Shown here: positions 21,740-40,659 of the stretch, piece by piece
Position numbering within the stretch: the first letter of the stretch is position 1
Layout: every line of letters begins with the position of its first letter
DNA from: Candidatus Bathyarchaeota archaeon
Lineage (GTDB): Archaea > Thermoproteota > Bathyarchaeia > Bathyarchaeales > Bathycorpusculaceae
Assembly: GCA_963811105.1 (NCBI GenBank)
Contig: CAWEPZ010000008.1
Span: 32,001 to 96,000 of the forward strand
DNA: 64,000 nucleotides
Reading direction: 5' to 3'
Notes under the pieces: generated by a model
The model's input: only the letters and a program-made list of their open reading frames with translations
Databases searched by the model: none
Told to the model about the DNA's origin: nothing
Position numbers and translations under genes: made by a program

Positions 21740-22060
21740 GCTGAGGCTCTGAAAGTCACTAAGGAGAAAAAAAATTGTTAAACATTTCTTAATTGCTGGC
21801 TAAAAGCGTCTATTCAGCCTCTTGCACTCGCGACATAACACTTTTTCTAGGAGAACATATGCTAGAAACTCAGTTTTAACCGCATGTTGAAAGTGCATAC
21901 TGAATACAACGAGAATATTTTTGGGTGACTTGTTTGGCGCATCCTTTAGGTTGGATATAATCAAGAAGATTCGATACAATTTGCTACATCTGATATTTAG
22001 GAAAGATTTAAAATAAAACAGCCGATAAAGAAAGAGTCAAAAATAGGAGAAAAAAGAAAA

Positions 22061-24664
22061 ATGAACATTAAATTCTCAGCAAATCTAAAAACAACCACAG
22101 CAATCGCTATAATGATACTAATTTTCTCTATTCTAATATCTACAATGCCTGTTCAAGCACAAGCTCAGATAACTGGCGGAGCACCTCAAAGCTCCAATTA
22201 CACAGGAGGACCTTTGCCAACAGGTGTCACTCCAAACGATACAATTGAAACCATAGCCTATCTCAGCGTTAGCCCCAACCCCATCGGAGTCGGCCAACTA
22301 TTACTCGTAAACATGTGGCTTCAACCACCCGTAATTGTTAACCGAGTAGTCGTTGGATACAACGTCGTAATAACAAAACCGGACGGAACCAAAGATACCA
22401 TAGGACCTTTGAACTCCTATCAAGGAGACGCAACAAATTGGTTCACTTACCTTCCCCAACAAGCTGGCAATTACACCTTCCAACTCTTCTATGCAGGCAC
22501 ATATTATCCAGCAGGATACTACAATCAGGGAATAGTTTACAGCACATCTCAAACAGGCGGAAGTGCACTTCTCCAATCAGCCTACTATCTACCTAGCAAC
22601 AGTGCAGTCGTAAAACTTACGGTGCAGGCAGACCCTGTGGCAAGTTGGCCTCCATCTACTCTTCCTACGGACTACTGGTCTCGCCCTATATCGCCAAATA
22701 ATAGAGAATGGTGGGTAATTGCAGGAAACTTTCCGTTTAGCGGAATAGGAGGGGGAGCAAATTGGCCTGCTTACACGAACATATACGAGAGCAACTACAA
22801 GTTTGTTCCCTATGTACAAGCGCCAACCAGTGCACACGTATTATGGAGACAACAATTCGCAATAGGGGGTCTTATCGGAGGTACCCAAGGACAAACATCG
22901 GTATCTATGGGAATAGTTTCTCAAGGCGTTCCACATTTAATTTATGACGGAAGATGTTATGAGACTCTAACTAAAGTCATGCCTCAAATAATCAATGGTT
23001 CAATCGTCAATCAGCCGGCATCTGTTTGGGAATGCTTTGACCTGCAAACAGGACAAGTATATTGGGATCAGACAGGCATAACCCAACCCCCGACATTCAT
23101 TACCTACGGCAGTAGTAGTCCAAGCGTACCCGGTGCGACTTCAGGTGAGACATCTGCAATTTACTTGGTATACATAGGCAGTAGCAGACTCGTAGAATAT
23201 GACCCATACACAGGAGCCGTAGTCGTGAACGTTTCAATTCCAGTGACATCAGGCACAGTCTATGCGGACCCCTGGGTTCTAAGCATACAAACAATTGGAA
23301 CAGGCGCAGCAACGCAGTACTATTTAATTAACTGGACCGTTACGGGAACTAGCACAAACTTTGCAACAAGAGTGAATAGCAACGTTTCTTATCCGTTCAG
23401 CACAATAGGCACTGCTGACTTCGAATCAATGATAGCTGTCAACACAGCCTCGATAACGCCTTCAGCTACCGGAACAGCTCAAGGCCAAATCCTTATGGGC
23501 TCCAGCTTAGTAACAGGAAAACTGCTATGGAACGTTTCAACCAGCGTTACCGCTTCGGAAATTTTCTTCGCATCGCTTACTTTTGTCGCTGACCATGGAA
23601 AATTCGCCGCACGCATGGATGATGGTTACATTGAAGCATGGGATCTGAAAACTGGCGCAGTAGCTTGGAAAACTTTGATGCCTACTCCCTGGGGAGAATT
23701 TGGAGTTTACGATGTATATTCGGCATATGGCCTTCTTTATTCAAATGCATATGATGGCGTTCGCGCACTTAACTGGACCAACGGAAACATAGAATGGACA
23801 TACCAATCAGACGCTGTTCCATTCGAAACTCCATACACTAACTCAACCGGTTCAGACGTTTACTCTTTCAGTGCACCGGGATATGTTGCTGACGGAAAAA
23901 TCTACACATTCAATTGCGAACACACCCCCAGCGAGCCCTTAACCAGAGGATGGAAACTCTACTGCATCAACGCTACTACAGGTGCGGGCATATGGAACAT
24001 AACGTTCATGAGTTTAGGACAGAATGGACCTGGCGCTAGAGGCTTCCAAGGTGCTATTGCCGGAGGCTACCTCGCATACATCAACGAATATGACGGCTAC
24101 CTTTATGTTTTCGGCAAAGGACAATGCGTAACCTCAGTCTCAGCTCCACAAACAGCAATCACTTCAGGAACGCCAGCAATCATTTCAGGTACAGTCATGG
24201 ACCAATCACCAGCACAGTCAGGCACGCCAGCCGTTTCAGACGCATCAATGGGAACATACATGGAGTACTTGCATATGCAACAGCCAATCGACGGACTATT
24301 CCATAACACAATCGTTACGGGTGTCCCAGTATCTATTGATGCAGTTGACCCTAACCAAAACTATATACACATTGCAGATACCACGAGCGATGTCAGTGGA
24401 TTATTCTCATACACTTGGACTCCAACACTCGCAGGTGACTACAAGATATATGCAACATTTGCAGGTAGCGGTTCTTACGGAAGCTCATATGCAGAAACAG
24501 CAGCCCATGTTGTCAATGCACCAGCGACAACATCTACTCCCACGCAAACAACTCAAACTTCAGCAGCAACCGCAACAGACGTAATGGCATACACAGTTGC
24601 CGCCGCCGTCGCCATAATCATAGCAATCGCTATCGTTGGTTTACTGTTACTTAGGAAAAAATAG
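22061..24664 (+). CDS. PQQ-binding-like beta-propeller repeat surface protein
   Basis: Signal peptide, SPNPIGVGQ, PTDYWSRP, repeated D..TG...W blades, EHTP..P..RG, YMEYLHMQQP, S/T linker, TM plus RKK. Confidence 0.85.
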   Translation: MNIKFSANLKTTTAIAIMILIFSILISTMPVQAQAQITGGAPQSSNYTGGPLPTGVTPNDTIETIAYLSVSPNPIGVGQLLLVNMWLQPPVIVNRVVVGYNVVITKPDGTKDTIGPLNSYQGDATNWFTYLPQQAGNYTFQLFYAGTYYPAGYYNQGIVYSTSQTGGSALLQSAYYLPSNSAVVKLTVQADPVASWPPSTLPTDYWSRPISPNNREWWVIAGNFPFSGIGGGANWPAYTNIYESNYKFVPYVQAPTSAHVLWRQQFAIGGLIGGTQGQTSVSMGIVSQGVPHLIYDGRCYETLTKVMPQIINGSIVNQPASVWECFDLQTGQVYWDQTGITQPPTFITYGSSSPSVPGATSGETSAIYLVYIGSSRLVEYDPYTGAVVVNVSIPVTSGTVYADPWVLSIQTIGTGAATQYYLINWTVTGTSTNFATRVNSNVSYPFSTIGTADFESMIAVNTASITPSATGTAQGQILMGSSLVTGKLLWNVSTSVTASEIFFASLTFVADHGKFAARMDDGYIEAWDLKTGAVAWKTLMPTPWGEFGVYDVYSAYGLLYSNAYDGVRALNWTNGNIEWTYQSDAVPFETPYTNSTGSDVYSFSAPGYVADGKIYTFNCEHTPSEPLTRGWKLYCINATTGAGIWNITFMSLGQNGPGARGFQGAIAGGYLAYINEYDGYLYVFGKGQCVTSVSAPQTAITSGTPAIISGTVMDQSPAQSGTPAVSDASMGTYMEYLHMQQPIDGLFHNTIVTGVPVSIDAVDPNQNYIHIADTTSDVSGLFSYTWTPTLAGDYKIYATFAGSGSYGSSYAETAAHVVNAPATTSTPTQTTQTSAATATDVMAYTVAAAVAIIIAIAIVGLLLLRKK

Positions 24665-24956
24665 AATAAACAAGAAACCCACAAAACCCTTTTCCTTTTT
24701 TATTAAGGTACGAAATCAGGCTTAACGTCACACTACAAAATAGGCCGCCAAGTTGCACGAGCTTCAAAAACATTGTAAAAAAGTGTCTTCGCGAAAATAA
24801 ATTTGAAGTATTCTGGTATATGAAGTTGATATATGGTTTCTAACCAATTATTATAGTATTAAGACTTGCGCAACTGTATTGCTAAATTCGGTACAACTCG
24901 ATGAAAGAAATATCGCTTATAACGCATGACTTGACTGTGGAATATATCTGAAGAAA

Positions 24957-25321
24957 GTGACTGCGTTGACTGTAGAATTAATGGAAACTGCCTTTAGACG
25001 TCGTGGAAATTTTGGCACACTAACCGAAATTATGGGTATCTGCAAGAATGGGTGTTCGTCGACTCAAATCATGTTTAAAGCGAACCTTAGTTTTACCCAA
25101 CTGAAACAGTATTTGGCTTCTCTTTTAAAATGGGTCTCCTTGAAAAGGTTGAGCGTGAGGGTAAGCGCCTCTATAGGTCGACAAATAAGGGTTTGGAGTT
25201 TATGGTTCTGCAACAACAAATAATTAATCTGTTAAATGATAAAGACTCGAGATGTTGTTCTAAGCGTCCTTTATCGGGCGTTATTCTTTTCCCACGAAAT
25301 AATTCAAGGTTAATGTTTTAA
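24957..25321 (+). CDS. Winged-helix regulator (HTH_45-like), frameshift in an A-run near 25130
   Basis: RRR...EI...C..G...TQIMFKANLSF.QL..YL..L continues as MGLLE...Y.ST.KG.EF. Confidence 0.75.
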
Positions 25322-25513
25322 AAATTTTCTTGTGAAGTATTCACTGATTTTTTAGACGTTTTATTGAGTCTGCTTCGTGTGCAGTTTATGTCTGTGTGGT
25401 TTCCAAGCAAGGTATAATGCTGTAGTTAAAATGAGAGCTAAATTTTTTATATTTGAGAAGAGGAGGCTGTTAATAATAAGATGCAAATTTCCCAGTGCCA
25501 ATGTAGAGGTTTG

Positions 25514-26170
25514 TTATGTTATTCTGGTGGCTGTTTCTATGATGACACCTTTTTTTCCCAGAGTATAAGTTAGCCTTCGCGTCGGGATTATTGTTCCTGA
25601 CATTTTCCTTATTATCAGATGTCTCATGGTTGAGTCGGCTGACCAAGTTAATGCGAAGTTTATTGAGCCTTCCGCGAAATGGTTCAAGGTTGCTTCCGCT
25701 TGCGGGTCTTGCATGCCTTCAGTGATAAGGATCAGATGGAAATTTTGGCTTTTTCTGTTCTGATGCGTCATGGCAGTTACTAAGTTAGCGATTTCTCCGA
25801 TTTTGTGGATAAGCAACAGCTCTGAAAGAGAGTCAATCACAATGGTTCTACACTGCTGCATTTCCTCTAAAACATTTTTCAGCAGTTCATTTGAGGTTGT
25901 GTTTTTGAGGCTCTTGAATCTCCAAGCCCCCGCATCCTCACACGACACTGTGTCCCATCCGTAAGCCGCCATATCCTCTCGAACGCTCTCTGCCGAAACG
26001 TTAACTGTAAAATAAGTGACTGGACACGTCTGCACCCTGTTGAATAGGACTTGTTTTGCAAAGACTTCGTTTCCTGAACCTGGCGCACCTGTGAGAAGTA
26101 TGATTTTTGGGGGCAGTCCGCCCATTAAGAATTCGTCGAGGCCGGCAATTCCAGTTTTCACAGTTTTCAT
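25514..26170 (-). CDS. KaiC/RAD55-like single-domain ATPase with degenerate Walker A
   Basis: TGIAGLD...GGLP, G.PGSGNE (K to N), IVIDSLS, IIRKM.G. Confidence 0.8.
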   Translation of the reverse strand: MKTVKTGIAGLDEFLMGGLPPKIILLTGAPGSGNEVFAKQVLFNRVQTCPVTYFTVNVSAESVREDMAAYGWDTVSCEDAGAWRFKSLKNTTSNELLKNVLEEMQQCRTIVIDSLSELLLIHKIGEIANLVTAMTHQNRKSQNFHLILITEGMQDPQAEATLNHFAEGSINFALTWSADSTMRHLIIRKMSGTIIPTRRLTYTLGKKGVIIETATRIT

Positions 26171-26337
26171 TGACAGTTAACCTTTTCTGATATGAATATG
26201 AATTGCTTAGTATTAACTTTTGTAGAGTTAAGATATTAATTACATGTCCAATTGCTTTTCATTACCTTTTTTTAAGGTCAAAGAATTGAATGATTCTAAC
26301 TTTTTTTGTTGTTATTCTTGATATATTTTAGAAATTG

Positions 26338-26369
26338 AATATAGAGTATTAATTCATCATACTTTTAAG
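26338..26369 (+). promoter_or_regulatory. Shared pilin promoter motif plus TATA box, copy 1
   Basis: AATATAGAGTATTAATTCAT-N5-TTTTAAG upstream of pilin 26422. Confidence 0.7.
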
Positions 26370-26421
26370 CATGCACTTCTAAATGGAGAACCAGTAAATC
26401 AAGAATAAAGGCGAAATAGAA

Positions 26422-26901
26422 ATGAAATTTGGAAAAACAATAAGGAATTTCCGTAAAGATGTACGCGCAATCTCACCAGTAATTGCCACTCTACTAATGA
26501 TAGCCATCGCAGTCGTCGCTTCCTTAGTTACTTACGCTTGGGTTATGGGATACATGAACTTCACAACAGAGAAGACCGGCAAAGCAATACAGATACAGAG
26601 TGTTTCCTACAGGTACGGAGGACCAATTGACGTATTTACAATATATGTACAAAACGTTGGCGACTCAGATCTTCAGCTTAGCAACTGCTAACAGTGTCAT
26701 TCATAAACGGTGCAGTATCTACGGCCTCGGGATAACTGGCACCTCTGGAGCTACCACTACTCTGAGATAAGGGCTAATACAGCCATCTATAACTGGCAAC
26801 AGCGCGCAAGTCTACTAGCAGGCGTTCAATCGATAACTATCAAAGTGACAACAACAGACGGAACATTCAGCCAAATAACTCAGCAATTCACTATCGTATA
26901 A
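26422..26901 (+). CDS. Archaeal type IV pilin (class III signal peptide), split by indels
   Basis: RKDVRA|ISPVIATLLMIAIAVV; YVQNVG; ends ITIKVTTTDGTFSQ in ORF 26710-26901. Confidence 0.85.
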
Positions 26902-26993
26902 GTGTGGATTGTTTTGAGCATTTTTTCTTTTATTTTTTTTATTAACAGAGTCGATGAAGGAAGCGTTAACATGAATGAGGGGAAATCGCTAAG

Positions 26994-28661
26994 TTGACAT
27001 CTCAAAGGAAACTATTTTCGCGCAAGAAACCAGTAAAACTTCTGGAACCTGTCTTAGATTTATCTGAAAAAATAGGTAAGAAAAAAGGTTTGTCCCTAAA
27101 AGTACCATCATTCACCAAAAAAACAAGGTTGCCAAATCCTGTTGCTCCCATTCCTGACAGAGAGATACCAGTTTCCGAGCCAGTTAACGAGAAAATCCTC
27201 GAAACTTACTCTCTCATTGAGCCTTATTGTCACGTGAATATTGTGAAGGATTTGGACAGGGGAAACATAAGATACGTGGTTGATGAACCAAAACTCACAA
27301 TCGAAGATGAAACTCACCTTAAGCGGTTAAAAGAAATTCTTAATCAAGTAATAACCCTAAAGCCATCAGATTTACAATCAAAAGAGACTGCTGGAAAATA
27401 CTTAGTTGAGAAGAGTAAAGAAATTTTTGACAACTACGATTTTAAGATAGATGCAGCAACACAAGGTAAACTTCTTTACTGCATTGTTAGGGATAATCTC
27501 GGTTTTGGAAAAATAGATTCCCTAATGCACGACCAATTAATTGAGGACCTTTCATGCGATGGAGTTAATATCCCAATCTTCGTTTGGCATCGCAAGTCCG
27601 AGTCCATACCAACAAACATTCGTTTTGAGACTGAAGAGGAACTTGACTCATTCGCTCTGCGACTTGCATATATGTGTGGAAGTCACGTTTCCATAGCTCA
27701 ACCACTATTAGATGCAAGTCTTCCGGATGGCAGCAGAATCAACCTTACTTACGGCAAAGAGGTTACGCGTAGAGGCTCAACTTTTACCATAAGAAAATTC
27801 AAACTTGACCCATTCACAGTAACCGATCTAATTATTTTTGGCACTATCTCAGCGGAGATGGCTGCTTTCTTGTGGTATGCAGTAGAAAATCGAGTTTCAA
27901 TCCTGGTGGCTGGCGGTATTGCTGCTGGCAAAACTACACTTTTAAACTGTCTAAGCATGTTCATAAAAGCCGACTTAAAAGTCGTATCCATCGAAGATAC
28001 ACCTGAGATTAACCTTCCACATGAAAACTGGATTCCGGCTACCACTAGATCACATTTTGGAATAGCCACAGACTCTGCAGACGTTACATTATTTGATCTT
28101 CTGAAAGCTTCATTGAGACAAAGACCAGACTACATCATAGTTGGTGAAATCAGAGGAGCAGAAGCATACACTCTTTTCCAAGCTGTAAGTACAGGGCACC
28201 TTGGGATGTCAACCGTTCACGCTGAATCAGTTGAATCAGCGGTTTACCGTTTAGAATCAGCACCAATGAACATTCCTCGAACTCTCATCGCTGGAATAGA
28301 CATCATATTGGTTCAAAAACGAGTCGAAATAAAAGGCAAACCTGTGAGAAAAACGGTTGCCGCCTCAGAAATCGTTGGTTTAGATCCTCGTTCAGGAGAA
28401 ATATTAACAAACGAAGTGTATAGATGGAACGCGACTGATGAAACATTCGATTATACTGGTCGAAGTTATATTCTTGAGAAAATAGCTGAAAAAACAGGAA
28501 TAAGCATTGAGCAGGCTGAAGAAGAACTCAAAAATAGAAGAAAAATAATAACCTGGATGGCTAAAAAGGGCATTCGAAATTACAAAGACGTATCCAACAT
28601 AATTCGATCGTATATGGAGAATCCTACTCGCATACTTGCGGAGGCATTAAAAGACGAATAA
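26994..28661 (+). CDS. Type IV pilus/type II secretion assembly ATPase (FlaI/TadA-like)
   Basis: LPDGSR, FTIRKF, GGIAAGKTT, IEDTPE, LRQRPDYIIVGEIRG, TGH...STVHA. Confidence 0.95.
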   Translation: MTSQRKLFSRKKPVKLLEPVLDLSEKIGKKKGLSLKVPSFTKKTRLPNPVAPIPDREIPVSEPVNEKILETYSLIEPYCHVNIVKDLDRGNIRYVVDEPKLTIEDETHLKRLKEILNQVITLKPSDLQSKETAGKYLVEKSKEIFDNYDFKIDAATQGKLLYCIVRDNLGFGKIDSLMHDQLIEDLSCDGVNIPIFVWHRKSESIPTNIRFETEEELDSFALRLAYMCGSHVSIAQPLLDASLPDGSRINLTYGKEVTRRGSTFTIRKFKLDPFTVTDLIIFGTISAEMAAFLWYAVENRVSILVAGGIAAGKTTLLNCLSMFIKADLKVVSIEDTPEINLPHENWIPATTRSHFGIATDSADVTLFDLLKASLRQRPDYIIVGEIRGAEAYTLFQAVSTGHLGMSTVHAESVESAVYRLESAPMNIPRTLIAGIDIILVQKRVEIKGKPVRKTVAASEIVGLDPRSGEILTNEVYRWNATDETFDYTGRSYILEKIAEKTGISIEQAEEELKNRRKIITWMAKKGIRNYKDVSNIIRSYMENPTRILAEALKDE

Positions 28662-28665
28662 GCGG

Positions 28666-29532
28666 TTGCTATCTCTCTTTCTTAGAACGGCAAAGTTTGT
28701 TCCTCAATCTCTTATTACAGAATTAAAGAGCATGCAGGATAATCTATCTAAAGCCGCGGTTAAAATCACCTTCGAAGCTTACTTGGGCTTAATGGCCTTC
28801 TCAACAATAATAGCTGCAGTGTTAGGCTTTGGAGTTTCATTACTGATATTCTCAATTAGACTTCCAATTGTACCTGCATTGGTATTTTCAATAATAGCTG
28901 CGATGGTCACTGGCATTGTCGTATTTGGGTTTTGTTATGTTTACCCTGTTCTCACGATTTCGTCTAAGGTGAGAAAGATAGAGTCAAATTTGCCATTAAC
29001 AGCTAATTTCATGGCGGTGCTAGCAAGTTCAGGCATGCCTCCCGAACGTATTTTTCGATCCTTAGCAAATGTCGGCGATGAATTCGGGGTTGGAGAAGAA
29101 ATACGTCGTGCCATTGCTGATACCGAATTGATGGGTTTGGATTTAAATGATGCTTTGAGACGCGCATCTGTAAGGTCGGCTTCAAGAAAGTTTGGCGCAA
29201 TGTTAGATGGCATTGTCACTACTTCCCACATGGGTGGCGATTTGGCGTCTTTTCTTAGAGATGAGTCAGAAAAAGCCAAAAAGCTGCGGGTTACTTCAAT
29301 GAAAAGTTTTCTAGATAGTCTTGCAGGCATGGCCGAAGTCTACGTCAGTTTCATGATTGCACTGCCCTTGGTCCTTGTAGTTATGCTCTCTGTAATGTCA
29401 TTCTTAGGCGGCGGATCAATGCTTGCCGGTATGGATCCTCAAACAGTTTTGTTACTTATGACCTTCATAGTAACACCTGCAGGTGTAGGAATAATGTTGC
29501 TAATGGTCGATTCAATGACACCTCCGAGGTAA
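28666..29532 (+). CDS. Type II secretion system F-family platform protein (TadC/FlaJ-like)
   Basis: TM segments, IESNLP...FMAVLASSG, GGDLASFL. Confidence 0.9.
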   Translation: MLSLFLRTAKFVPQSLITELKSMQDNLSKAAVKITFEAYLGLMAFSTIIAAVLGFGVSLLIFSIRLPIVPALVFSIIAAMVTGIVVFGFCYVYPVLTISSKVRKIESNLPLTANFMAVLASSGMPPERIFRSLANVGDEFGVGEEIRRAIADTELMGLDLNDALRRASVRSASRKFGAMLDGIVTTSHMGGDLASFLRDESEKAKKLRVTSMKSFLDSLAGMAEVYVSFMIALPLVLVVMLSVMSFLGGGSMLAGMDPQTVLLLMTFIVTPAGVGIMLLMVDSMTPPR

Positions 29533-29538
29533 ATAATA

Positions 29539-30387
29539 TTGGGCAAAGTTGCAATTAAAAAAAGACAATTAACTTTGGGGCTTTCGATACTTGCCGTAAT
29601 AGTAGCTGTAGCAATTATCGCTATCGTATCATTCTCGGCATTAACAACTTATATCAATGAAATCTTTTTTGTTAGCATATTAGTGATATTAGTCCCTTCG
29701 GCTATTCTTGATTTGAAACACCAACGATGGATATCCTCAATAGAAAACCAGATGCCTCTGCTCGTCAGAGGAGTTGCAGAATCTCAGGAAACCGGGATGA
29801 CCTTAATTAGAGCTTTGGAAAAAGTTGTCGACAACAAAATGGTCAGTGGTCCCCTTTCAAAGGAAGTCAAGCAGTTAGTTATTGAAATGTCCTGGGGTAC
29901 ATCTTTTGAAGATGCACTAACCAATTTCAAAAATCGCATAAACTCACCCATAGTGAACCGCTTCTGTGTTCTTGTTTTGGAAGCAAGCCGATCAGGGGGA
30001 ACAATCAAGAAAGTATTCACTGCAACTGCAGGTTTCATGGAGGAAATGAAGGATATCGACAGGGAAACCGACGCCCAAATGAAACCTTACATAATAGTGA
30101 TTTATGCGGCCTTTGCAGTGTTTATAGTTACAGCAATTCTGCTGGTGCAATCGTTTTTTGCTCCCATGAGTGGTTCTCAGCAAATATCAAGCAATACCGC
30201 CATTGCTGGAGTTGGCGGATTAAAGGATTTCTTCTATCAAGACATGTTGGTTTCAGGTTTAACAGGCGGATTGATGGCAGGAAAAATCGGGGAACGCAGA
30301 GTAGCTGGAGGTATGAAACACTCAATCCTACTAGTCGTAATTGGATACGCCATATTCTTTGCAGGTATACCGCCCAACTGGATGTAA
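29539..30387 (+). CDS. Type II secretion system F-family platform protein (second)
   Basis: IENQMP..VR.VAE..ETGMTL..AL, SWG.SFEDAL, GLMAGKIGE. Confidence 0.9.
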   Translation: MGKVAIKKRQLTLGLSILAVIVAVAIIAIVSFSALTTYINEIFFVSILVILVPSAILDLKHQRWISSIENQMPLLVRGVAESQETGMTLIRALEKVVDNKMVSGPLSKEVKQLVIEMSWGTSFEDALTNFKNRINSPIVNRFCVLVLEASRSGGTIKKVFTATAGFMEEMKDIDRETDAQMKPYIIVIYAAFAVFIVTAILLVQSFFAPMSGSQQISSNTAIAGVGGLKDFFYQDMLVSGLTGGLMAGKIGERRVAGGMKHSILLVVIGYAIFFAGIPPNWM

Positions 30388-30392
30388 AAAAA

Positions 30393-30845
30393 ATGAAGAA
30401 ACTATTTAGAAACCGAAAGGCAGTTTCACCAGTGATCGCCACCGTATTGATGATATTAGTAACAATGGCTGGTATGTCGATTCTTTTTGGGTTTGTGATT
30501 TCATATTCTGATGCGTACAAAGCAGGTGTTGGAAGTTCTGTTATGGAGTCTTTAACCGTCGAAGACATATGGTTAAGCCCGCATACTACCACTTATAATT
30601 CTGAAGTTCAAATATCTGTCTACAATGTTGGAAAAGTAGATTCCACAATAACATCGATGTATGCAAACGGCTTAAAATTAACTGAAAATGGCACCCTCAA
30701 CTTAAACAAACCCATAGCCGTTGGCCAACATCTAACCATAACTCTTGACTGGAGCCCGAACCGTTGGGTTCATGGTCAAGAATATACATTTAGAGTTTCA
30801 ACATTGAGCGGATCTAACTTCGACATTAAATATACAGCGCCATAA
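30393..30845 (+). CDS. Type IV pilin (minor)
   Basis: RNRKA|VSPVIATVLMI; VYNVG. Confidence 0.85.
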   Translation: MKKLFRNRKAVSPVIATVLMILVTMAGMSILFGFVISYSDAYKAGVGSSVMESLTVEDIWLSPHTTTYNSEVQISVYNVGKVDSTITSMYANGLKLTENGTLNLNKPIAVGQHLTITLDWSPNRWVHGQEYTFRVSTLSGSNFDIKYTAP

Positions 30846-30860
30846 ACTGGGAGATGAAGA

Positions 30861-31343
30861 ATGTTGATAAAGCGACTATTAAAAAACAAGAAGGGAACAG
30901 CTGAAGTAATCGGATCAGTAATGTTCATTGTTATATTACTGTTCTTCTTTACAAACGTGTACTTGTGGCATGACACTGCAACAAAAGAAATGAACGATCT
31001 CTATGTTCAGAAGATAAACTCGCCAATTACGATTTCAATAATGTCGAGTCCTTACGAGTTGAATGTAACCAATAAAGGTGGCGTAGATGCTAGACTTTCA
31101 ATTTTGTGGGTGGATGTGACATCGGCCAGTTCCGGTAGCCCCGATCGGTTTCATGGTTACTTCAATCTTACACAATTAAATATTGTTGTCCTTCCAGGGT
31201 CAAGCATCCCAGTTTCTTGGAATTCTGTCGGCACTTTGAATAGTTTGGATGAAAGTTATAATCCCCAATCTGGTGATATATTGCAGCTTAAAATGGTTAC
31301 AAGCGTTGGAAATACTGCTGCTTGTCGATACCCCCAAGGTTGA
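30861..31343 (+). CDS. Pilin-like protein
   Basis: KNKKG|TAEVIGSVMFIVILLFFF; VTNKG; VTSVGN. Confidence 0.75.
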   Translation: MLIKRLLKNKKGTAEVIGSVMFIVILLFFFTNVYLWHDTATKEMNDLYVQKINSPITISIMSSPYELNVTNKGGVDARLSILWVDVTSASSGSPDRFHGYFNLTQLNIVVLPGSSIPVSWNSVGTLNSLDESYNPQSGDILQLKMVTSVGNTAACRYPQG

Positions 31344-31546
31344 AAATTTGTAGCTTATTTTTCTTCTTATTTCCCAAGATTTTACCCAAGAAGATGATCT
31401 TCTGGTCGGTGCCACTTTTCTATTTACTTGTTTTTGTTGTTTGGTCATAAGGAATTGCCTTTTCTTAGCTTGTCTGTCGATAGAGCATAATTTTTTTTCG
31501 TTTGATTGTTCGTTTATGAATATGTCTGCCTTTAGTTTTTTGGGGT

Positions 31547-32672
31547 CTAGTTTACATGCACTATTAGGGGTCTGTTAGAGATTATCCCATTGAATATCCA
31601 TTCGCCAAGTGCTAAATATGGAAGAGAGCTTGAGGTGCCTACCATGTTTGAGAGGTTTTCAATATCTTCTTTGTTTGTTGTTTTTCCAATTATTTGCGTG
31701 CCAATTTGAGATAGAACACTTCCTCCAAGTTGGGCTGGATGGGTAGTTAAGAGACATGCAAATATGCCTGTTTTTCTTCCTTCAGAGACAACTTGATCTA
31801 GTGTTTCTCCGATAAGATTTTCTGATTCCTCGATAATTAGGAATAGTGGCTTGATTTTATCTTCCAATCTTAGTTTTAGTAGCATTTGTAGAGCTTCGAT
31901 GTAGAAAGCCCTTTTTTCTTTGGGTGCTAATCCGTAGCCATTTAGAATTGATGTTTGTCCTCTCTTTATTTCTTTAGCCAGAGCATCTTTATCCATTTTT
32001 GAATTAACCACAATGGCTTTAGCGTGTGTTTCTAGAGCGTTTGAGTATTCATTATACGGGTCAAATACAATTATTTGACCTGGAGTTTTGCCGTATATTT
32101 CTTGAATCAATAATTTGGCAAGGTGAGTTTTTCCTGCGCCAGCTACAGCAGTGATGATTGCGTGTTTTGAAGTTAACTCTTGTGCATCTATAAAGCACTT
32201 AATGCTTCCGCTACTATCTTGCTCATGAGCCGATGAACCTTCAAAGGTTCCTATTTGAATAGGCATCTTGAAGACTTCTCCTTTTGCATTTCTATTCAGG
32301 ATGTCTTCAAGAAACTTTTTTAATGGAATATAGACTCGGCACCCCGGATTTGGGGGAACCAAAACTTTGCCCATTGGTTTAACTTCATTTCTAAGATCAA
32401 TGTATCCCTCGATTTTTGCAGTTGCTAGCATTTTACCAATTTTGTCGCCTATGGTTGAACCCGCAACTTCCTCATAGCTAGTATATATCAGTAATAACTG
32501 CCAAGACCTGGCATGCTTCACCAAAAAGCGGATGGTCAATAAGGACATAATCATATTTTTCCAAACTGCCCTTGTTCTTTGGGGGACTGACCAGAAAACA
32601 GAATTGCCCCGTATGGGTATCATTGGATACTAATCCAAAATGTTCCCTTATGCGAACGTTTGAAAGATCCAT
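31547..32672 (-). CDS. HerA/DUF87-like ATPase with HAS-barrel N-terminus, frameshift near 32480
   Basis: N-terminus from ORF 32478-32738 joins 31547-32623; KHAIITAVAGAGKT, IIVFDPYNEY, LIIEESE, EGRK.G...TTHP. Confidence 0.8.
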
Positions 32673-32815
32673 TAATCTAACCTCTAAATTGGTATTCTCT
32701 ATTTGATGTGTTGAGGATTTTAATTTATCGGAGTACAAATTCAGTGTACAAATTCAGGACATTTCCCTGGATAATCTGTTGCGATTCAACTTGGCTAATT
32801 TATCCATACAGCAAT

Positions 32816-32847
32816 AATACAGAGCAATAATTCATGTTTGTTAAATA
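32816..32847 (+). promoter_or_regulatory. Shared pilin promoter motif plus TATA box, copy 2
   Basis: AATACAGAGCAATAATTCAT-N5-TTAAATA upstream of 32918. Confidence 0.7.
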
Positions 32848-32917
32848 TCACTTCATCATAGCTAGCGCTTAGACGAAAAAATAGTCTACAAACTATTAAT
32901 TATGAAGGAAAAAACAA

Positions 32918-35482
32918 TTGACAAGAACAAAAAATGTAAAAAACACTACTAAATTCGAACGCTCAATCAAAGCAATATCTCCAGTCATCGCAACTCTACT
33001 AATGATTGCTATCGCAGTCGTTGCCTCGCTAGTCGTCTACGCTTGGGTAACAGGCTACATGGGCAACACAACATCCAAAGCTGGAAAAGCCATACAAATC
33101 CAAAGCTTCGCTTCCCAAGGTGGCAACTTGGTTATCTACGTGCAAAACGTAGGCCAAGGAGACGTAGAACTCAATAGAGACCAAAGCGTCTACGTAAACA
33201 GCAACTTGATACCTCTCAGATCAACCACTGCAGGCAAAAATTCCAATAGTAGCAGGTCAAACTGTAGAATTGCTGACTGACTTTGCTATACACTGCAGGC
33301 ACCAAGGTCAACATCAAAGTAACCACAACCGACGGCACTTTCATGACAGCAACAGGCACAGGTGGCTCAAGCAATCCAACAACCCCAGCAACTACGTATC
33401 CTGTTAGTTTTGTGTTGGGTGCTGGTGGTTAATCGATGAATCCAGTCGGTTCTCAAACTGTTGGTGGAACTATTGCGATAACGGCAACAGAAACTACCGG
33501 GCATCACTTTACTTTTTGGAGTAGCAGTACAGGCTCTATCACTTTTGGCGATGATAACTTAGCTTCAACAAGTGCCACAATCAACGGTGCAGGTACAATA
33601 ACAGCAAACTTTGCAGCCGATACAGTTCAGTACTCTGTTACTTTTGCTAAGTTAGGTGATGCTAGTGCAGTAATTAGTCCACTAGCTGGAACGTACTCTT
33701 ATGATGCTGGTTCATCAGTTCCAATTACAGCTACTGCCTCTTCTGGGAATCACTTTACCTCTTGGAGTAGCAGTACAGGCTCTATCACTTTTGGCGATGA
33801 TAGCTTAGCTTCAACAAGTGCCACAATCAACGGTGCAGGTACAATAACAGCAAACTTTGCAGCCGATACAGTTCAGTACTCTGTTACTTTTGCTAAGTTA
33901 GGTGATGCTAGTGCAGTAATTAGTCCACTGGCTGGAACGTACTCTTATGATGCTGGTTCATCAGTTCCAATTACAGCTACTGCCTCTTCTGGGAATCACT
34001 TTACCTCTTGGAGCAAAACGGGGTCTATCACTTTTGGTGATGATAGCTTGGCTTCAACAAGTGCCACAATCAACGGTGCAGGTACAATAACAGCAAACTT
34101 TGCAGCAAACACACGTGTTAGGTACTGATGGTTTTTCAATGAATCCAACTGCTGGTTCTCATAATGTTGGTGGAGCTATTGCGATAACAGCAACGGCAAA
34201 TACAGATTTCCACTTTGCATCTTGGACTGGCACAGGCTCAATTACCTTCGCCGATGCTAACGCTGCATCTACTACGGCCACGGTTAATGGTGCGGGCTCG
34301 ATAACTGCAAACTTTGCAGCAAACACTGTTAATTATAATATTGTTGTCACTAATCCTGCTGGTTCTCATGGCACGATTGCTCCATCTGGTACTACTTCTT
34401 ATGCAGCTGGTGCTACTCCGAGCTTCACGATTACAGCAGATTCTGGTTATCACATTGCAAGCGTAACGACTAATGCTGGTGCGCAGGCTCTTACTTCGCC
34501 TTATGTTTTTCCAGCTCTAGCTGCTGATGGAACTTTAACCGCAACATTTGCGGCAAACATTGTTAGCTATAATATTGTTGTGACTCAAACTACCAATGGT
34601 GCAATTGATCCTTCTGGTACTACTTCTTATGCTGCTGGTGCTACTCCGAGCTTCACGATTACTCCTGCTGCTAATTATCACATTGCGACTATAGTGACTA
34701 ATGCTGGGTCTCAAACTGTTACTACACCTTCCGGTCAGGCTTATGTGTTTCCAGCTCTAGCTGCTGATGGAACTTTAACCGCAACATTTGCGGCAAACAC
34801 AGTTGTTGCTACAAAGTTAGTGTTTGCTGCAGGTTCTTCTCAGACTTTAACTGCCGGCGTTATTTCGCCAACTGCGATAATAGTCCAACGTCAAGATGCA
34901 TCCAATAATCCTGTTTCGACTGGCACTGCTCAAATTACCGTCACGTTGAGTACAGGTTCTTCAGGCGGCGTGTTCTATTCAACTGCCGGTGGTACAACTG
35001 CGATTACTTCGATTACTATCGCTGCAGGCTCGAGTAGTTCTGCTGGTTTCTATTACAAGGATACTGTTGCTGCTGCTCCAACATTAACTGGTGCTTCTTC
35101 TGGTTTGACTTCCGCTACCTCACAGTTCACGATTAACGCTGCGGCTGCTTCCAAGTTGGTTTTCACGGTGCATCCAGGAACGGTCCAACACAATGTAGTT
35201 TCGACAGTGTTTACTGTACAACGCCAAGATCAGTATGGAAATCCAACTACAACAGGAACTGCAACTGTAACCTTAGCGAGCGACGGCGGATCCCGAGGTC
35301 ACTTTTACTCTGATTCTGCGGGTCACAATGAGATAACCTCCACTATAACAATTGCTGCTGGATCTAATGCGTACAATTTCTATTATCAAGACACAACCAG
35401 CAGTCCTCCTCAGACACGAACGATCACTGCGACTTCATCTTCTTTAACGACGGCTTCGACAACGATTTCCGTTATCACATAG
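32918..35482 (+). CDS. Giant pilin-adhesin fusion 1 (pilin domain plus tandem beta-rich repeats), broken by several indels
   Basis: ERSIKA|ISPVIATLLMI pilin N-terminus; continuation VNIKVTTTDGTF at about 33307; ORFs 33436-34128 and 34100-35482 carry InlB-B-like and KLVF...QRQD..NP repeats. Confidence 0.75.
33517..34107 (+). repeat. Near-identical 246-bp (82-codon) intragenic tandem repeat, about 2.4 copies
   Basis: GTAGCAGTACAGGCTCTATCAC at 33521 and 33767; CCAATTACAGCTACTGCC at 33721 and 33967. Confidence 0.92.
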
Positions 35483-36332
35483 AAAATCTATTTTCCGTTC
35501 TTTTTTTTTGTAATTTATCTTTATAACATTTCAATCGTTTTTGTATGATACGTTCTGTGAAAGATTTTCAAATTATTATAGGTAAAATAAATCTTAAAAC
35601 GACTCGAATGAACCCACTTTAGGAAACCCGCCTTGAGATTTACTGGTGACTTAGGTCCATGGGTTCAAATTAGCTACCTGGTTTTTGTTAGTTTTTATAT
35701 TTTAAGTCTCCCTACATTCCTTTCTTTTTTTTGGAATTCAAAAAAGTAACATTGCCCATTAATAAAAAACAACTATCTTCACCGAGAAGAACTCTGGCTT
35801 TCTTACCTGATTCAAACTTGATAACAATTAAAGCCTTCCTTAAACATAAGCTTGCAACGGATTCCTCGGAGATATTTTTAGATGAAATATTAGTAAGAAC
35901 TCACAGGAAACTGAATTGTTGAGAATAGAGCAATATTTGCTGCTTATTAATAGTGGTTAAGGCTTCATTTAAATTATTTTTCCTAAATTCTTCATTTATT
36001 TAATGTTGAACAGACGTAAGATTAATTCACTAATATCACAAAGGTATTTGCATATAATAAGAAGTCTTATGAACAAAACTTTCAAGATAACGAAGTGTAA
36101 AAAAAGTGAAGTTGCAAGGAAACTCTTAGCCAAGGAGAAACAGAGGAGTTCCAGCAGAGTTTGGAATTTTGTGGTACCCTTCACATAAGATGGGCAATAA
36201 TAACCCCATATTAGTCAATTCCACCTCTCACCAAAAAATCTTTTAGAAAAAACAGACGAAGAAAGACAAAGAGTGCCTGTTAGCGATTCTGGCTTACAAG
36301 ATTACCTTTTACTTGCCTATTTAAGAATTCTC

Positions 36333-36364
36333 AATATAGAGTATTGCTTCATGGGTCTTAAATA
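36333..36364 (+). promoter_or_regulatory. Shared pilin promoter motif plus TATA box, copy 3
   Basis: AATATAGAGTATTGCTTCAT-N5-TTAAATA upstream of 36441. Confidence 0.7.
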
Positions 36365-36440
36365 TCCCTTCCAGCAAGAATAGCATATAATTTAACGCTA
36401 ATTTAACAATTGGACAAATGGTAAAGGAAGAAGAGAAGAA

Positions 36441-39236
36441 ATGAGAAAAATAACTAAATTTAAACGGTCAATTCGTGCAATATCTCCAGTAGTTGCAACT
36501 TTACTAATGATTGCCATTGCAGTTATTGCAGCACTGGTAGTTTATGCTTGGGTAACAGGCTACATGGGCAATACTACAAACAAAGCTGGAAATGCGATAC
36601 TAATCCAAAGTCTCACAACAGATCAGGATAATAAATTAGTTGCCTATGTTCAAAATGTTGGTCAAGGCGACGTAATTCTGGATTCTGGCTACGTAAACGG
36701 TGACTTAGCAGCTCAATCGTTAAGCATTTCATTAGCCAAAGAGGCCACAGTAGCCGTCTCCACAACTTACCTTGTGACATCGGATAACTCATTAACGATA
36801 AAAATAGTGGCCACTGATGGTACTTTCACTCAGTTTACAGGATCTCCTGATTTTGAAAACGGGCATGCAACCACTTATCCAGTAGTCTTTAATTTAGGTA
36901 CAGGCGGCGCTTCCATGGTTCCCTCAGGAACACATTCGTATACAGCAGGAACCCTGGTAGCAGTACACACATTAGCTTTGTCGAGTTATCAATTTTCATC
37001 CTGGACCAGCACAGGAAGCATCTCTTTTGATTCTACAACTTCGGCTTCCACAACTGCCCATATTGACGGAGTAGGAACTGTAACAGCTAATTTTGTTGCT
37101 GTGCAGCCATCTCAAAACTATCAAGTAACATTCAACTTGGGCCAAGGCGGATCGTCCATGACCCCAACGGGTACTAAAACATACTCTGGCGGTTCATCAG
37201 TGCCTCTTTCAGCAATAACTTTGTCGGGTTATCAGTTTTCATCCTGGACATGTACAGGCACAATTTCGTTTGACTCGGCAACTTCTGTCTCGACAGTAGC
37301 ACACGTAAACAGCGCAGGTTCAATCACCGCCAACTTCATAGCCACTCAACCCACACAGAACTACCAAGTGAGCTGGATCTTAGGCACCGGTGGATCTTCA
37401 ATGAACCCCACTGGAACCCAAATCTATGCGGGTGGTTCAATCGTGACAATTTCCGCGATTCCTACTTCAGGATACCAGTTCTCATATTGGGCCAGTTCAA
37501 CTACTGGGTTTATTTCATTTGGCTCAGTAACCTCAGCTATCACAACAGCACAAATTAGCGGCACCGGTTCTATTACAGCTAACTTTATTCAAATTCAAAC
37601 CGACCAAAACTATCAAGTAACATTCAGCACAGATGGCGGCGGAAGCACCTCAACTACAAACCCAACTGGAACTCAAACATACGCAGCTGGAACAATAGTT
37701 CCAGTAAGCGCCACTGCCGGTTCAGGCTACCAATTCTCATCTTGGAGCAGTACAGGGTCAATTTCCTTTGACGCTTCAACTTCAACTTCAACAAATGCTC
37801 TAATTAACGGAGAAGGATCAATCATTGCCAACTTCATAACCCCACAAACAAGCCAGAACTACCAGGTTACCTTCACATTAGGCACAGGTGGAACATCCAT
37901 GAACCCCACTGGCACTCAGACTTACGCAGGCGGCTCCGCTGTCCCAGTATCTGCGGTTGCAGCATCAGGATATCAATTCTCCTCTTGGATAAGCACAGGC
38001 TCGATATCATTTGACTCCACAACATCAAGCTCAACAATCGCCCACGTCAACAGTGCAGGTTCCATTACTGCTAATTTCGCTCCTATCGCAACAGGTCAAA
38101 ACTACCAAGTTACATTCGCCCTAGGCACGGGAGGGGCATCTATGAATCCATCCGGAACCCAGATTTATGCCGCAGGCTCAACAGTAGCTATCAGCGCGAC
38201 TTCCGCTTCTGGCTACAAGTTTTCTAGCTGGACGAGCTCAGGCAGCATCTCTTTCGATGGTGCAACCTTAGCGTCAACAAATGCTCATATAGGTAGCGAC
38301 GGCACGATAACAGCCAACTTTGCTGCAAGTCAACATATCATCACTGTCACTCAAGGTTCTAATGGTGTTATTGCTCCTGGAACAACTGCTGTAAACGAAG
38401 GTGCAAGTCAGACTTTCATCATAACCCCCAACAACGGCTATCATGTTCTCGACGTAACCGTGGACAGTTCATCGAAAGGCGCTGTTACCTCTTGGACCTT
38501 CAACAATGTCCAAGTAGATCACACTATAACTGCGAGCTTTGCAAGCGGTGCCTATCATACTATTACAACTTCTGCAGGCCCAAATGGGCAGATAAGTCCT
38601 TCAGGTTCAGTACAAGTTTTAGATGGTGCCAGCCAAACATTCACAATCACACCTAGCAACGGATACATAATCGCCAGTTTAATGGTTGACGGCGCTTCTG
38701 CAGGCTACGGACAATCATACACATTCACAAACGTAGTGGCAGACCACACTATAACCACTAGCTTCACGACCGGATCAACACTGATTAACACTGGCTACGA
38801 TGGAAATCCATGGGACAACAACTGGATGGCAGGCGGAAACCCACCATGGCGTGCAGCCACAGGTGAAGGCGTCTTAGGAAGCACTGCCGCAAAATCTGAT
38901 TCCATAGTTGGAGACTCCGGGCCATTTACTTCCAACTCTTTGAATACTCAAGGAGGAACAACTATCCGAATAACCTTCATGTATAAAGTACAAAACACAA
39001 ACTCTGCAAATGACCTCAAGATAGAATACTGCGCAACCAACTCCGGCACACTCCCTAACCTCAACCCTGGAAGCACTGACTTCACTACAATTGCAGGTAT
39101 AGGCCAAACCACTCCAAGTAACACTTGGACCGTAGGAAGCGTCACCTTTACGAGCACAGCAAATCCAACAGCATTCAGAACACACTTCTATTTCAGATTC
39201 GAGAGTACCCTCCAAACACACAGTGGTGCTTGCTGA
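36441..39236 (+). CDS. Giant pilin-adhesin fusion 2 (931+ aa)
   Basis: KRSIRA|ISPVVATLLMI; six roughly 80-aa YQVTF.LG.GG.SM.P.G...GYQFSSW...ITANF repeats, two HTIT...NG.I.P repeats, and a C-terminal jelly-roll-like domain whose WIDNV end lies just past an apparent frameshift. Confidence 0.85.
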   Translation: MRKITKFKRSIRAISPVVATLLMIAIAVIAALVVYAWVTGYMGNTTNKAGNAILIQSLTTDQDNKLVAYVQNVGQGDVILDSGYVNGDLAAQSLSISLAKEATVAVSTTYLVTSDNSLTIKIVATDGTFTQFTGSPDFENGHATTYPVVFNLGTGGASMVPSGTHSYTAGTLVAVHTLALSSYQFSSWTSTGSISFDSTTSASTTAHIDGVGTVTANFVAVQPSQNYQVTFNLGQGGSSMTPTGTKTYSGGSSVPLSAITLSGYQFSSWTCTGTISFDSATSVSTVAHVNSAGSITANFIATQPTQNYQVSWILGTGGSSMNPTGTQIYAGGSIVTISAIPTSGYQFSYWASSTTGFISFGSVTSAITTAQISGTGSITANFIQIQTDQNYQVTFSTDGGGSTSTTNPTGTQTYAAGTIVPVSATAGSGYQFSSWSSTGSISFDASTSTSTNALINGEGSIIANFITPQTSQNYQVTFTLGTGGTSMNPTGTQTYAGGSAVPVSAVAASGYQFSSWISTGSISFDSTTSSSTIAHVNSAGSITANFAPIATGQNYQVTFALGTGGASMNPSGTQIYAAGSTVAISATSASGYKFSSWTSSGSISFDGATLASTNAHIGSDGTITANFAASQHIITVTQGSNGVIAPGTTAVNEGASQTFIITPNNGYHVLDVTVDSSSKGAVTSWTFNNVQVDHTITASFASGAYHTITTSAGPNGQISPSGSVQVLDGASQTFTITPSNGYIIASLMVDGASAGYGQSYTFTNVVADHTITTSFTTGSTLINTGYDGNPWDNNWMAGGNPPWRAATGEGVLGSTAAKSDSIVGDSGPFTSNSLNTQGGTTIRITFMYKVQNTNSANDLKIEYCATNSGTLPNLNPGSTDFTTIAGIGQTTPSNTWTVGSVTFTSTANPTAFRTHFYFRFESTLQTHSGAC

Positions 39237-39377
39237 GAGCACATGGATCGACAATGTAATAATCACTACTGTCTTAGTCTGCAACAAGGGAAAAAATTCC
39301 CAACTCTCCCTTTGTTTCAAACATTTAAAGTCTTAAAAAATATACGAAAAAAATAAAACTATCAGGACAGATAAAAC

Positions 39378-40112
39378 ATGAAAACAAAAGTAACATCAAC
39401 AATAGTTCTTCTAAGCCTACTATCTATTGTCTTAACTCCATTAGTTTTAGGTCAAACTACCACAGTTGGAGTCAAACCCGGAGATACCTTCAACTATAGC
39501 TACAGAATCAATTGGGACTCAACCGATCCAACCGCTACTGTTCCAGCCCAATATGAAGACTTAAACAATACTCAATTCATACGAATTACTGTAATCACCG
39601 TTACAGGTTCGTTGATTAATGTAGACTTTACACGACACTTCAACAACGGCAGTGAACAAACACAAAATGGAAACATAGATGTCAATACACAGATTCTTGA
39701 AATCCCATACAGTGTATTAATAATACGGGCGGATGCAAACCCAGGAGAAAAGATTTATCCAGCCGGAGGACACGCAATCCTAAACGACACAGCAAAACGG
39801 ACCTATGAGATTGGTCAAGTCGATACCATTCGATATGTTTCGCCTGATACAGCCGGCGCTAACTCCGAAAAGACAGAAATTTATTACAGCCGAACAAACG
39901 ATGTAGGAGTCGAATATACATCTGTTAGCCAAGAGACGTCCGGATCAGCTGTCACAACAACCCGAGAAACAATGTTAATAAGCTCTTGGGTTATTCCAGA
40001 GTTTCCAGTCACAACAATTCTCGTGATTCTGCTGCTAGCTATTCCAATACTGATGATCGCATACAAGAAAAAGAGGCTTTCAAACCACAAATCTTCGGTT
40101 CCCCTTAAATAA
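39378..40112 (+). CDS. Secreted protein with PEF-CTERM-like sorting signal
   Basis: Signal peptide, VGVKPGD.F.Y, C-terminal IPEFP plus TM plus YKKKR. Confidence 0.7.
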   Translation: MKTKVTSTIVLLSLLSIVLTPLVLGQTTTVGVKPGDTFNYSYRINWDSTDPTATVPAQYEDLNNTQFIRITVITVTGSLINVDFTRHFNNGSEQTQNGNIDVNTQILEIPYSVLIIRADANPGEKIYPAGGHAILNDTAKRTYEIGQVDTIRYVSPDTAGANSEKTEIYYSRTNDVGVEYTSVSQETSGSAVTTTRETMLISSWVIPEFPVTTILVILLLAIPILMIAYKKKRLSNHKSSVPLK

Positions 40113-40155
40113 TAATCTCTATCTTTTTTGTGCAGTTAAAATCAGCCTTATATGA

Positions 40156-40401
40156 CTAGTAAGCTGTCGCTTTCATGTTTGCCCTATCCCACTGTCTCTT
40201 TTTATACAATATATAGCCGAAGAAGTATGCCGATCCAAAGATCAGGAATGCGCTATCTAAGAAGTTGGGGAAAGAAGGAAAATAAACCCAATGATCAAAG
40301 AATGTTGTGAACTTCAATGCGACTCCGACGGTTCCGAAGAAAAATGCGACCATCAATCCATTAATGAGAACTTCTTTCCAACTCACATTTGAAGCCTTCA
40401 C
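40156..40401 (-). CDS. Small two-TM hypothetical protein
   Basis: GGAGG upstream of a GTG start; two hydrophobic segments. Confidence 0.55.
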   Translation of the reverse strand: MKASNVSWKEVLINGLMVAFFFGTVGVALKFTTFFDHWVYFPSFPNFLDSAFLIFGSAYFFGYILYKKRQWDRANMKATAY

Positions 40402-40659
40402 TTTTTAACCTCCAACCAGTACGGCCCTAAACTTGTCACAAAAGACTTATAAAAACCATAGAATTCCCTCAATAAAAGCACATGTGGTTCATAGATCCAA
40501 TAAAAACTACTCCAAAAACTCTAGAAAATGTTTTTTGAGAAACTGCTGTCAGACAGTTAAATGTTCTAGAAAAGTGAAAAATAGCTTCATAAATCTTATA
40601 TTCTGTATAACCTATGGTTGCAGCAATCAAATCTGTTATCGATAAATGGAGACCAATTA

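Follow-up and report, generated by a model that had tools for sequence, protein, structure and literature searches.

The regulation of archaeal pili and related filaments is known from a few model lineages, through the factors ArnR, Orc1-2, EarA and CsmR. Here we describe a 17-bp palindrome, RTRGAAB-AWT-VTTCYAY, that lies just before the TATA boxes of three class III pilin genes in a 64,000-nucleotide stretch of a Candidatus Bathyarchaeota archaeon genome (GCA_963811105.1, contig CAWEPZ010000008.1, positions 32,001 to 96,000), referred to throughout as the window. The same palindrome precedes 83 of the 92 self-promoted main pilin genes found in the window and in related loci, in 36 of 40 genomes. 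The operator is real, conserved and specific to pilin genes; its architecture is of a known kind, while the motif itself was not found in print. It is almost certainly the site of a dimeric regulator serving a pilin regulon.

TFB-RF1 (PF1088) of Pyrococcus furiosus, for which activation has been shown in vitro, acts from a palindrome that likewise stands at a conserved distance before a weak transcription factor B (TFB) recognition element (BRE) and a good TATA box (PMC5937170). The TFB-RF1 box is 13 bp long (TCTGAANTTCAGA) and serves other targets (PMC5937170), whereas the pilin site is 17 bp with a 5-nt spacer; the consensus columns of the pilin palindrome also differ from the TCTG-N5-CAGA pattern of TFB-RF1. 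The ArnR/ArnR1 boxes of Sulfolobus acidocaldarius are likewise inverted repeats with a 5-nt spacer ahead of type IV filament genes (PMC6396743). ArnR differs in being membrane-bound, in needing two boxes (PMC6396743) and in belonging to pfam13463 (PMC4858521), as against HTH_45 for the candidate regulator considered below. The T.GA-N7-TC.A skeleton of the ArnR box is matched by 57 of 85 pilin sites, and either half of TCGAC-N5-GTCGA is found in 0 of the 85. HTH_27 gave a weak match to one of 11 winged helix-turn-helix (wHTH) proteins (E 0.006, below cutoff). PF14947, the accession of HTH_45, presumably carries the InterPro name 'ArnR1-like'. The link between the palindrome and ArnR appears to be one of geometry only. 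The NrpR operator pattern, GGAA-N6-TTCC, occurs in none of the 85 pilin sites.

The DNA-damage element of Orc1-2 in the ups pili system offers a parallel of another sort, being one upstream element that recurs, at about -44 to -39, in several promoters belonging to one pilus locus (PMC5817253, PMC6061795). Its sequence, ANTTTC, is non-palindromic, unlike the pilin site, and occurs in 0/85 pilin sites. EarA and CsmR likewise have dedicated sites upstream of the BRE and TATA box of filament genes, although these are genes for archaella, not pili, and the motifs, A(C/G)(C/G)TACA(T/C) and TATCA-N4-TGATA, are unrelated to the palindrome (PMC10665913, PMC13286277). CsmR works alongside the KaiC-like protein CirA (PMC13286277). 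Among the top matches of a literature search, supplements excluded, there was no report of the palindrome, of the candidate regulator family or of Bathyarchaeia pilin promoters, with the proviso that supplementary tables of PMC4858521 and PMC13705601 could list the wHTH gene or the locus; in the passages available from these two works, which are the 2016 and 2026 censuses of type IV filaments in archaea, no promoter motif is given for Bathyarchaeia.

The palindrome in the window and in related genomes

The three sites and their TATA boxes are as follows.

26341..26357, no strand: palindromic site 1, before the major pilin and assembly operon; score 13.9, rank 2 under a model trained without the window
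26362..26369, plus strand: 8-bp TATA box serving the major pilin; the preceding BRE region is A-poor
32819..32835, no strand: palindromic site 2, weakest of the three, between the HerA-like gene and the first giant pilin; score 10.0 oriented, 6.5 symmetrised
32840..32847, plus strand: 8-bp TATA box serving the first giant pilin
36336..36352, no strand: palindromic site 3, ahead of the second giant pilin; ranked 1 in the window with a score of 15.9
36357..36364, plus strand: 8-bp TATA box serving the second giant pilin

An earlier note made from the letters of the window had reported a 20-nt motif at 26338, 32816 and 36333, set off by 5 nt from a TATA-like box and followed each time by a class III pilin gene. 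All three copies, their spacers and their boxes were found as described, and the Pilin_N model matches all three genes. The conserved unit is nevertheless shorter than that note held: the palindrome starts 3 nt inside the 20-mer (at 26341, 32819 and 36336), and the 5' AAT extension is not conserved (0.04-0.29 bits at positions -3 to 0). With the three copies in register, identical columns number 15/20 in the motif, 0/5 in the spacer and only 6/60 upstream and 5/57 downstream. A matrix built from any two of the window sites puts the third above all other positions (n=127,962). Shuffling gave a mean of 0.55 matches to the 20-mer at up to 3 mismatches, and 3 of 100 shuffles reached 3; the real copies match without any mismatch, which makes this a lenient figure. 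For the matrix of the motif model trained on related promoters (below), correlation with the reverse complement is r = 0.88, a dyad symmetry reached by 1 of 10,000 column shuffles.

Relatives were fetched by scanning genomes with a pilin alignment, which confirmed 91 stretches; the best 80 were used and yielded 55 loci, 54 of them titled Bathyarchaeota or Bathyarchaeia and one uncultured archaeon. Loci were chosen by pilin protein similarity (two peptide patterns), independently of the motif. Together with the window they hold 93 main and 62 minor pilins from 40 genomes, one of each being dropped for short upstream DNA. The DNA examined comes to about 0.97 Mb, that is, the window and flanks of up to 10 kb as opposed to whole genomes. 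The motif model started from the window sites and was trained on 89 other promoters, from which 82 sites were kept; a score of 10 or more served as threshold, shuffled promoters having their 99th percentile at 10.1.

When training left out one genome at a time, the palindrome was still found in 81 of the 92 main pilin promoters. Of the four genomes below threshold, one has a degenerate site in place and one a one-base insertion, as judged by eye. None of 61 operon-internal minor pilins rises above a score of 4.3. Palindromes followed by a TATA box number 99 in the DNA examined, where shuffles yield 1-3 in total, and 90 of them stand at main pilins; two of the remaining nine precede pilin reading frames and one lies at a locus edge. 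The loci cover two kaiC clades (support 100/100). The palindrome is thus almost confined, in this DNA, to pilin promoters of one lineage of Bathyarchaeia. The idea of a dedicated regulator site shared by the major pilin operon and both giant pilins is supported by these counts, both by its presence at orthologous promoters and by its rarity before unrelated genes in the DNA examined, two of the checks that the earlier note had proposed. The motif can further serve to search genomes of Bathyarchaeia for surface proteins under the same control.

The three site-bearing pilins of the window are paralogs with 56-62% identity across the N-terminal domain, and the palindrome might on that account be a neutral remnant of a promoter duplicated along with the genes. 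The chance of this is negligible and already contradicted by conservation, for the flanks stand at background divergence while the site persists in 36/40 genomes.

Some minor variants were seen. Site 2 is altered at a column invariant in 82/82 training sites. All three window sites carry T at position 14 (26354, 32832 and 36349), which elsewhere is found in only 7 of the 82; co-drift with the divergent wHTH protein of the window is possible. A weaker fourth copy suggested at 35922 (35925..35941 for the 17-bp unit) was rejected, with a score of 3.1, rank 20 in the window and a TATA score of -3.0; in four relatives the homologous place holds no strong site (best scores 0.8-7.6). At L044:16250-16266, on the minus strand, a strong palindrome and TATA box precede a protein of 277 aa whose N-terminus forms a hydrophobic helix, located where other genomes have a giant pilin; it is possibly a non-pilin member of the regulon.

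Core promoter and direction of control

The spacer between palindrome and TATA 8-mer is 5 nt at 51 of the 85 sites, 4 nt at 30 and 3 nt at 4, placing 81/85 at 4-5 nt. AAA occurs within the six bases before the TATA box in 3/85 pilin promoters, as against 25/35 promoters of the KaiC-like ATPase genes (kaiC) in the same loci, several of the kaiC TATA boxes being imperfectly placed. BRE positions outside the palindrome are also not A-rich. Since a palindrome beside a weak BRE is the pattern known from TFB-RF1, activation through recruitment of TFB is the likeliest reading, and by analogy the predicted palindrome-bound regulator is probably an activator. Like TFB-RF1, the bound dimer would assist the loading of TFB at the weak BRE and would switch on the major pilin and assembly operon together with the large repeat-bearing pilins; there is good reason to expect joint activation of this kind.

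A position upstream of the TATA box does not by itself fix the sign of regulation, because deletion of csmR in Haloferax raises transcripts of genes with a CsmR site upstream of BRE and TATA (PMC13286277). As the palindrome ends 4-5 nt before the TATA 8-mer, inside the 6-7-nt BRE, a dimer sitting over the distal BRE might instead block TFB until a signal frees it. A repressor operator of this sort seems improbable: with free BRE positions that are not A-rich, the promoter left to itself would be a weak one for a pilin made in abundance, and activators typically show such near-fixed spacing (PMC2995911, PMC2241852).

The earlier note had also offered an element for an alternative TFB, for which the near-fixed position beside the TATA box and the TFIIB homologues in many type IV pilus loci (PMC4858521) would speak. 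An extended BRE is at odds with a symmetric site of 17 bp and a spacer of 3-5 nt, usually 4 or 5, since the BRE is asymmetric, 6-7 nt long and in rigid register with the TATA box; it is at odds, too, with tandem copies in four promoters and copies downstream of the TATA box in wHTH genes. A census of open reading frames (ORFs), judged from their sequences, saw no TFB cluster in the loci, and we regard this explanation as very improbable. The tandem copies occur in the major pilin promoters of L025, L027, L029 and L031, where a full second palindrome at an offset of 15 bp takes the place of the element E2 described below.

The identity of the binder is a separate matter, and the form of the site allows for Lrp/AsnC activators (feast/famine regulatory proteins, FFRPs) such as Ptr2, which bind just upstream of the BRE (PMC2995911). 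The abcdeWWWedcba form of FFRP sites is found here, with a WWW centre in 84/85 pilin sites and an AAT or ATT centre in 77/85, and GAA is held in common with the FL11 site (PMC2715240). At position e, however, all four sites obtained by SELEX, the systematic evolution of ligands through exponential enrichment, have A (PMC2715240), as against 0/85 here (position 7). There is also no peak of auxiliary sites at 21-22 or 31-33 bp, tandem sites being spaced at 15 bp, and the ORF census saw no full-length Lrp cluster in the loci. An Lrp-type binder is accordingly a distinctly remote candidate.

A candidate regulator of the Sso10a family

The features ahead of and around the wHTH gene of the window, together with matches to a second element, E2 (about ATATTMCNAAWWYCGATATA), are listed here.

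24957..25321, plus strand: Sso10a-family (HTH_45) wHTH gene of clade A, candidate regulator; frameshifted near 25130
24937..24953, no strand: degenerate palindrome remnant at the wHTH gene; left half only, half-site score 1.1, p 0.18
24916..24923, plus strand: TATA-like box of the wHTH gene, aligned with clade-A promoters
24876..24896, plus strand: E2 in the wHTH promoter; also in 12/13 related clade-A promoters
36317..36337, minus strand: weak E2 match abutting site 3; score 8.8, offset -19, the same offset in 3 related promoters

This gene had been named as a possible regulator on the strength of its position beside the pilins. Adjacency alone is weak evidence, because the position and orientation of the gene vary; clade A stands as a candidate by virtue of a palindrome at its own start. 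The encoded protein is a member of the Sso10a family by hidden Markov model (HMM), sequence and fold. HTH_45 (PF14947) is passed by the fragment in the window and by 11/11 wHTH proteins, and NF053610 gives an intact relative 74.9 bits (cutoff 60), with the window fragment below cutoff. The monomer model has a predicted local distance difference test score (pLDDT) above 83 over residues 11-90, with a C-terminal helix at 74-93 followed by a disordered tail, and its top Foldseek matches are the Sso10a dimers 1r7j and 4hw0. An atlas search found only unnamed HTH_45 clusters. Characterised members of the Sso10a/Sac10a family (NF053610, PF14947) are chromatin proteins that bend or bridge DNA, with no binding site determined for them (PMC4941522).

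An HMM search found 33 wHTH genes in 24 of the 40 genomes. Fourteen, including that of the window, form clade A (support 98/97); 12 are assigned to clade B by their recognition-helix pattern, one long-branch gene joining that clade in the tree; and the remaining 7 are unrelated paralogs outside both. In 12 of the 39 other genomes, 10 kb or less separates a clade-A gene from pilins. In 10 of the 13 clade-A genes outside the window, the inverted repeat ATAGAD-N5-HTCTAG stands 26-30 nt beyond the start of that gene's TATA box, immediately ahead of the ribosome-binding site, a placement that fits negative autoregulation. Comparable start-site palindromes occur in 1/12 clade-B genes and 0/7 of the others, and among neighbouring genes in 0/35 kaiC, 0/24 ATPase and 1/28 HerA-like genes, the last being a shared pilin site; the background is 8/638 ORFs, none at the clade-A position. 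An RNA hairpin behind the inverted repeat in the wHTH leader was considered unlikely (-0.4 to -0.6 kcal/mol in 7/10, inner pair in 3/10). The clade-B genes of L009 and L024 have inverted repeats of the palindrome's geometry before their starts.

Activation from upstream and self-repression at the start site would together explain both placements of the palindrome. We therefore propose, tentatively and at a little under even odds, that the palindrome is the operator of a homodimeric transcription factor controlling the type IV pilus and that it is bound by the clade-A Sso10a protein encoded in or beside the pilus locus; the prediction that this protein is the pilin activator carries the same tentative weight. 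It may also occupy the weaker copy that covers the start of its own gene, and in this way repress itself. Taking activation as given, a clade-A dimer that is both binder and self-repressor is slightly favoured. The Sso10a family has so far been described mainly as chromosome-packing proteins, and the clade-A member is the best candidate for the factor that would switch on the pilus.

In clade-A wHTH genes the E2 element stands about 19 nt ahead of the TATA box (besides the window, at L042:9897, L013:9914, L046:784, L051:9910 and L035:9893); it is a dyad wider and weaker than the palindrome (r 0.6). In 15 of 84 pilin promoters, most of them of major pilins, it directly adjoins the palindrome in reversed orientation, at offset -15, and it occurs at offset -19 in four pilin promoters, as against a mean of 0.31 per offset. 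Because two elements are shared with pilin promoters, the wHTH gene belongs to the pilin circuit. On the proposed model another factor would read E2, which would make the circuit a feed-forward loop, and the KaiC-like ATPase may conjecturally supply the signal input. A complete circuit, in which an Sso10a protein would be a sequence-specific, self-repressing master activator of the pilus with a feed-forward arm through clade B (reading E2) and the KaiC-like ATPase, is doubtful at present. Were it true, it would give the Sso10a family a defined binding site and a largely uncultured class a reconstructed regulon. A prediction of the complex of KaiC-like ATPase and clade-A dimer scored 0.02, which is no answer and was counted neither for nor against. 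E2-like matches with no wHTH gene behind them occur in L004, L008, L035 and L042 (about 80 nt past the kaiC stop) and at window position 12308 on the minus strand.

Several observations weigh against the proposal that a clade-A protein activates from the palindrome. As to activation, the weakness of the BRE is partly forced by the motif, because the palindrome overlaps the distal BRE by 1-3 nt, and the BRE and motif counts are phylogenetically non-independent. As to the binder, Sso10a1 and Sso10a2 bind without apparent sequence specificity (PMC4941522; PMC11894785), and the site proposed for Sso10a1 is 25 bp (PMC4941522). No clade-A gene was seen near pilins in 27 of 39 genomes within flanks of up to 10 kb. 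The ten autoregulatory sites amount to roughly one event, because they are homologous (p 0.001-0.012 per gene), and their centre is degenerate, with AWT in 2/10 as against 77/85 pilin sites. In the window the gene's own site is likewise degenerate and consists of a half-site only; the remnant lies 62 nt before the RR anchor, compared with 63-65 in relatives. The wHTH gene there is moreover frameshifted, inverted relative to its relatives and long-branched, and deviates at columns invariant in 50 homologues. Its proportion of nonsynonymous differences (pN) is 0.24-0.34, well under a saturated synonymous proportion (pS) of 0.73-0.95 and beside a mean pN of 0.21 for intact pairs. That it is a pseudogene is not established, because pN lies far below pS and assembly error is plausible.

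The same activator site could be bound by another protein: clade B, an A/B heterodimer or a factor encoded elsewhere, with the clade-A gene as a repressed target that may itself read E2. In 12 genomes a clade-B gene follows kaiC on the same strand, which also counts against clade A. At position 1 of the site, A is found in 31/33 cases from genomes carrying clade A, as against G in 17/25 from those carrying clade B. Clade A might bind E2 instead of the palindrome, because E2 is common to wHTH and pilin promoters, and as a wider, weaker dyad E2 could suit a longer site of Sso10a type. On the other side, only 1 of 12 clade-B genes has the start-site palindrome, the difference between A and B sites is confounded with phylogeny, and the ORF census, judged from sequences with no family scan per cluster, found no further DNA-binding cluster in more than 3 genomes. 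Such a binder is possible, with odds well short of even. Clade B, which has a differing recognition helix, was found at L009, L018, L024, L025, L027, L029, L030, L031, L033, L037, L042 and L054.

Returning to clade A, a search for longer, fused forms found none among 7,998 candidates, which is weak evidence. High-affinity Sso10a sites were left to genome-wide or SELEX work (PMC4941522), and the question can now be put to a 17-bp site and a protein of 115-125 aa. The palindrome provides a precise, deeply conserved operator with a named candidate binder in Bathyarchaeia, an abundant class of sediments.

Genes of the locus and further features in the window

The locus runs from the wHTH gene (plus strand) and the KaiC-like ATPase (minus strand) to the major pilin, the assembly ATPase, two TadC proteins and two minor pilins, and continues with a HerA-like ATPase (minus strand) and two giant pilins with InlB-B-like repeats.

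25514..26170, minus strand: single-domain KaiC-like ATPase (PF06745), divergent from the major pilin; cluster in 34/40 genomes
26422..26901, plus strand: major pilin with class III signal peptide (Pilin_N); stop at 26689, full-length alignment to 150-aa relatives
26994..30387, plus strand: pilus assembly ATPase (T2SSE) and two TadC-like platform proteins (two T2SSF matches)
30393..31343, plus strand: two operon-internal minor pilins without the palindrome; Pilin_N match for the first only, below cutoff
31547..32738, minus strand: HerA-like ATPase (DUF87), frameshifted, divergent from the first giant pilin; cluster in 29/40 genomes
32918..35482, plus strand: first giant pilin, split over three ORFs and bearing InlB-B-like repeats (Pilin_N, Flg_new_2); the pieces match intact relatives
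36441..39236, plus strand: second giant pilin, intact at 931 aa, with 7 Flg_new_2 repeats

In the window sequence the major pilin, the first giant pilin, the HerA-like gene and the wHTH gene are each broken by stops or frameshifts. An early stop is also found in 18 of 92 main pilins of these assemblies, which makes assembly error a plausible, if unproven, cause of the broken genes. Further split or truncated-looking genes at 9611-10955, 11088-12108 and 19676-21529 fit indel errors across the assembly.

The HerA-like ATPase (31547-32738, minus strand) shows sub-cutoff similarity to the HerA and CedD models, and its retention inside pilus loci hints at DNA transfer. Three paralogous secreted beta-propeller (PQQ_2) proteins, none with the palindrome, flank the locus at 19676-21529, 22061-24664 and 41488-44127. 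Because two PQQ_2 paralogs border the wHTH gene, and the small ORF that precedes the wHTH gene in a close relative, rearrangement may have moved it.

The block at 36000-36330, before the last giant pilin, is conserved at the DNA level in L014, L021, L028 and L053 with no shared reading frame; an RNA is conceivable here, as is a small gene affected by assembly errors. A search of 21500-41500, this block included, gave 0 Rfam matches at the gathering threshold. Further along, an ORF at 51282-52667 on the minus strand has, judged by eye, a zinc-ribbon-like N-terminus and a tyrosine-recombinase-like C-terminus.

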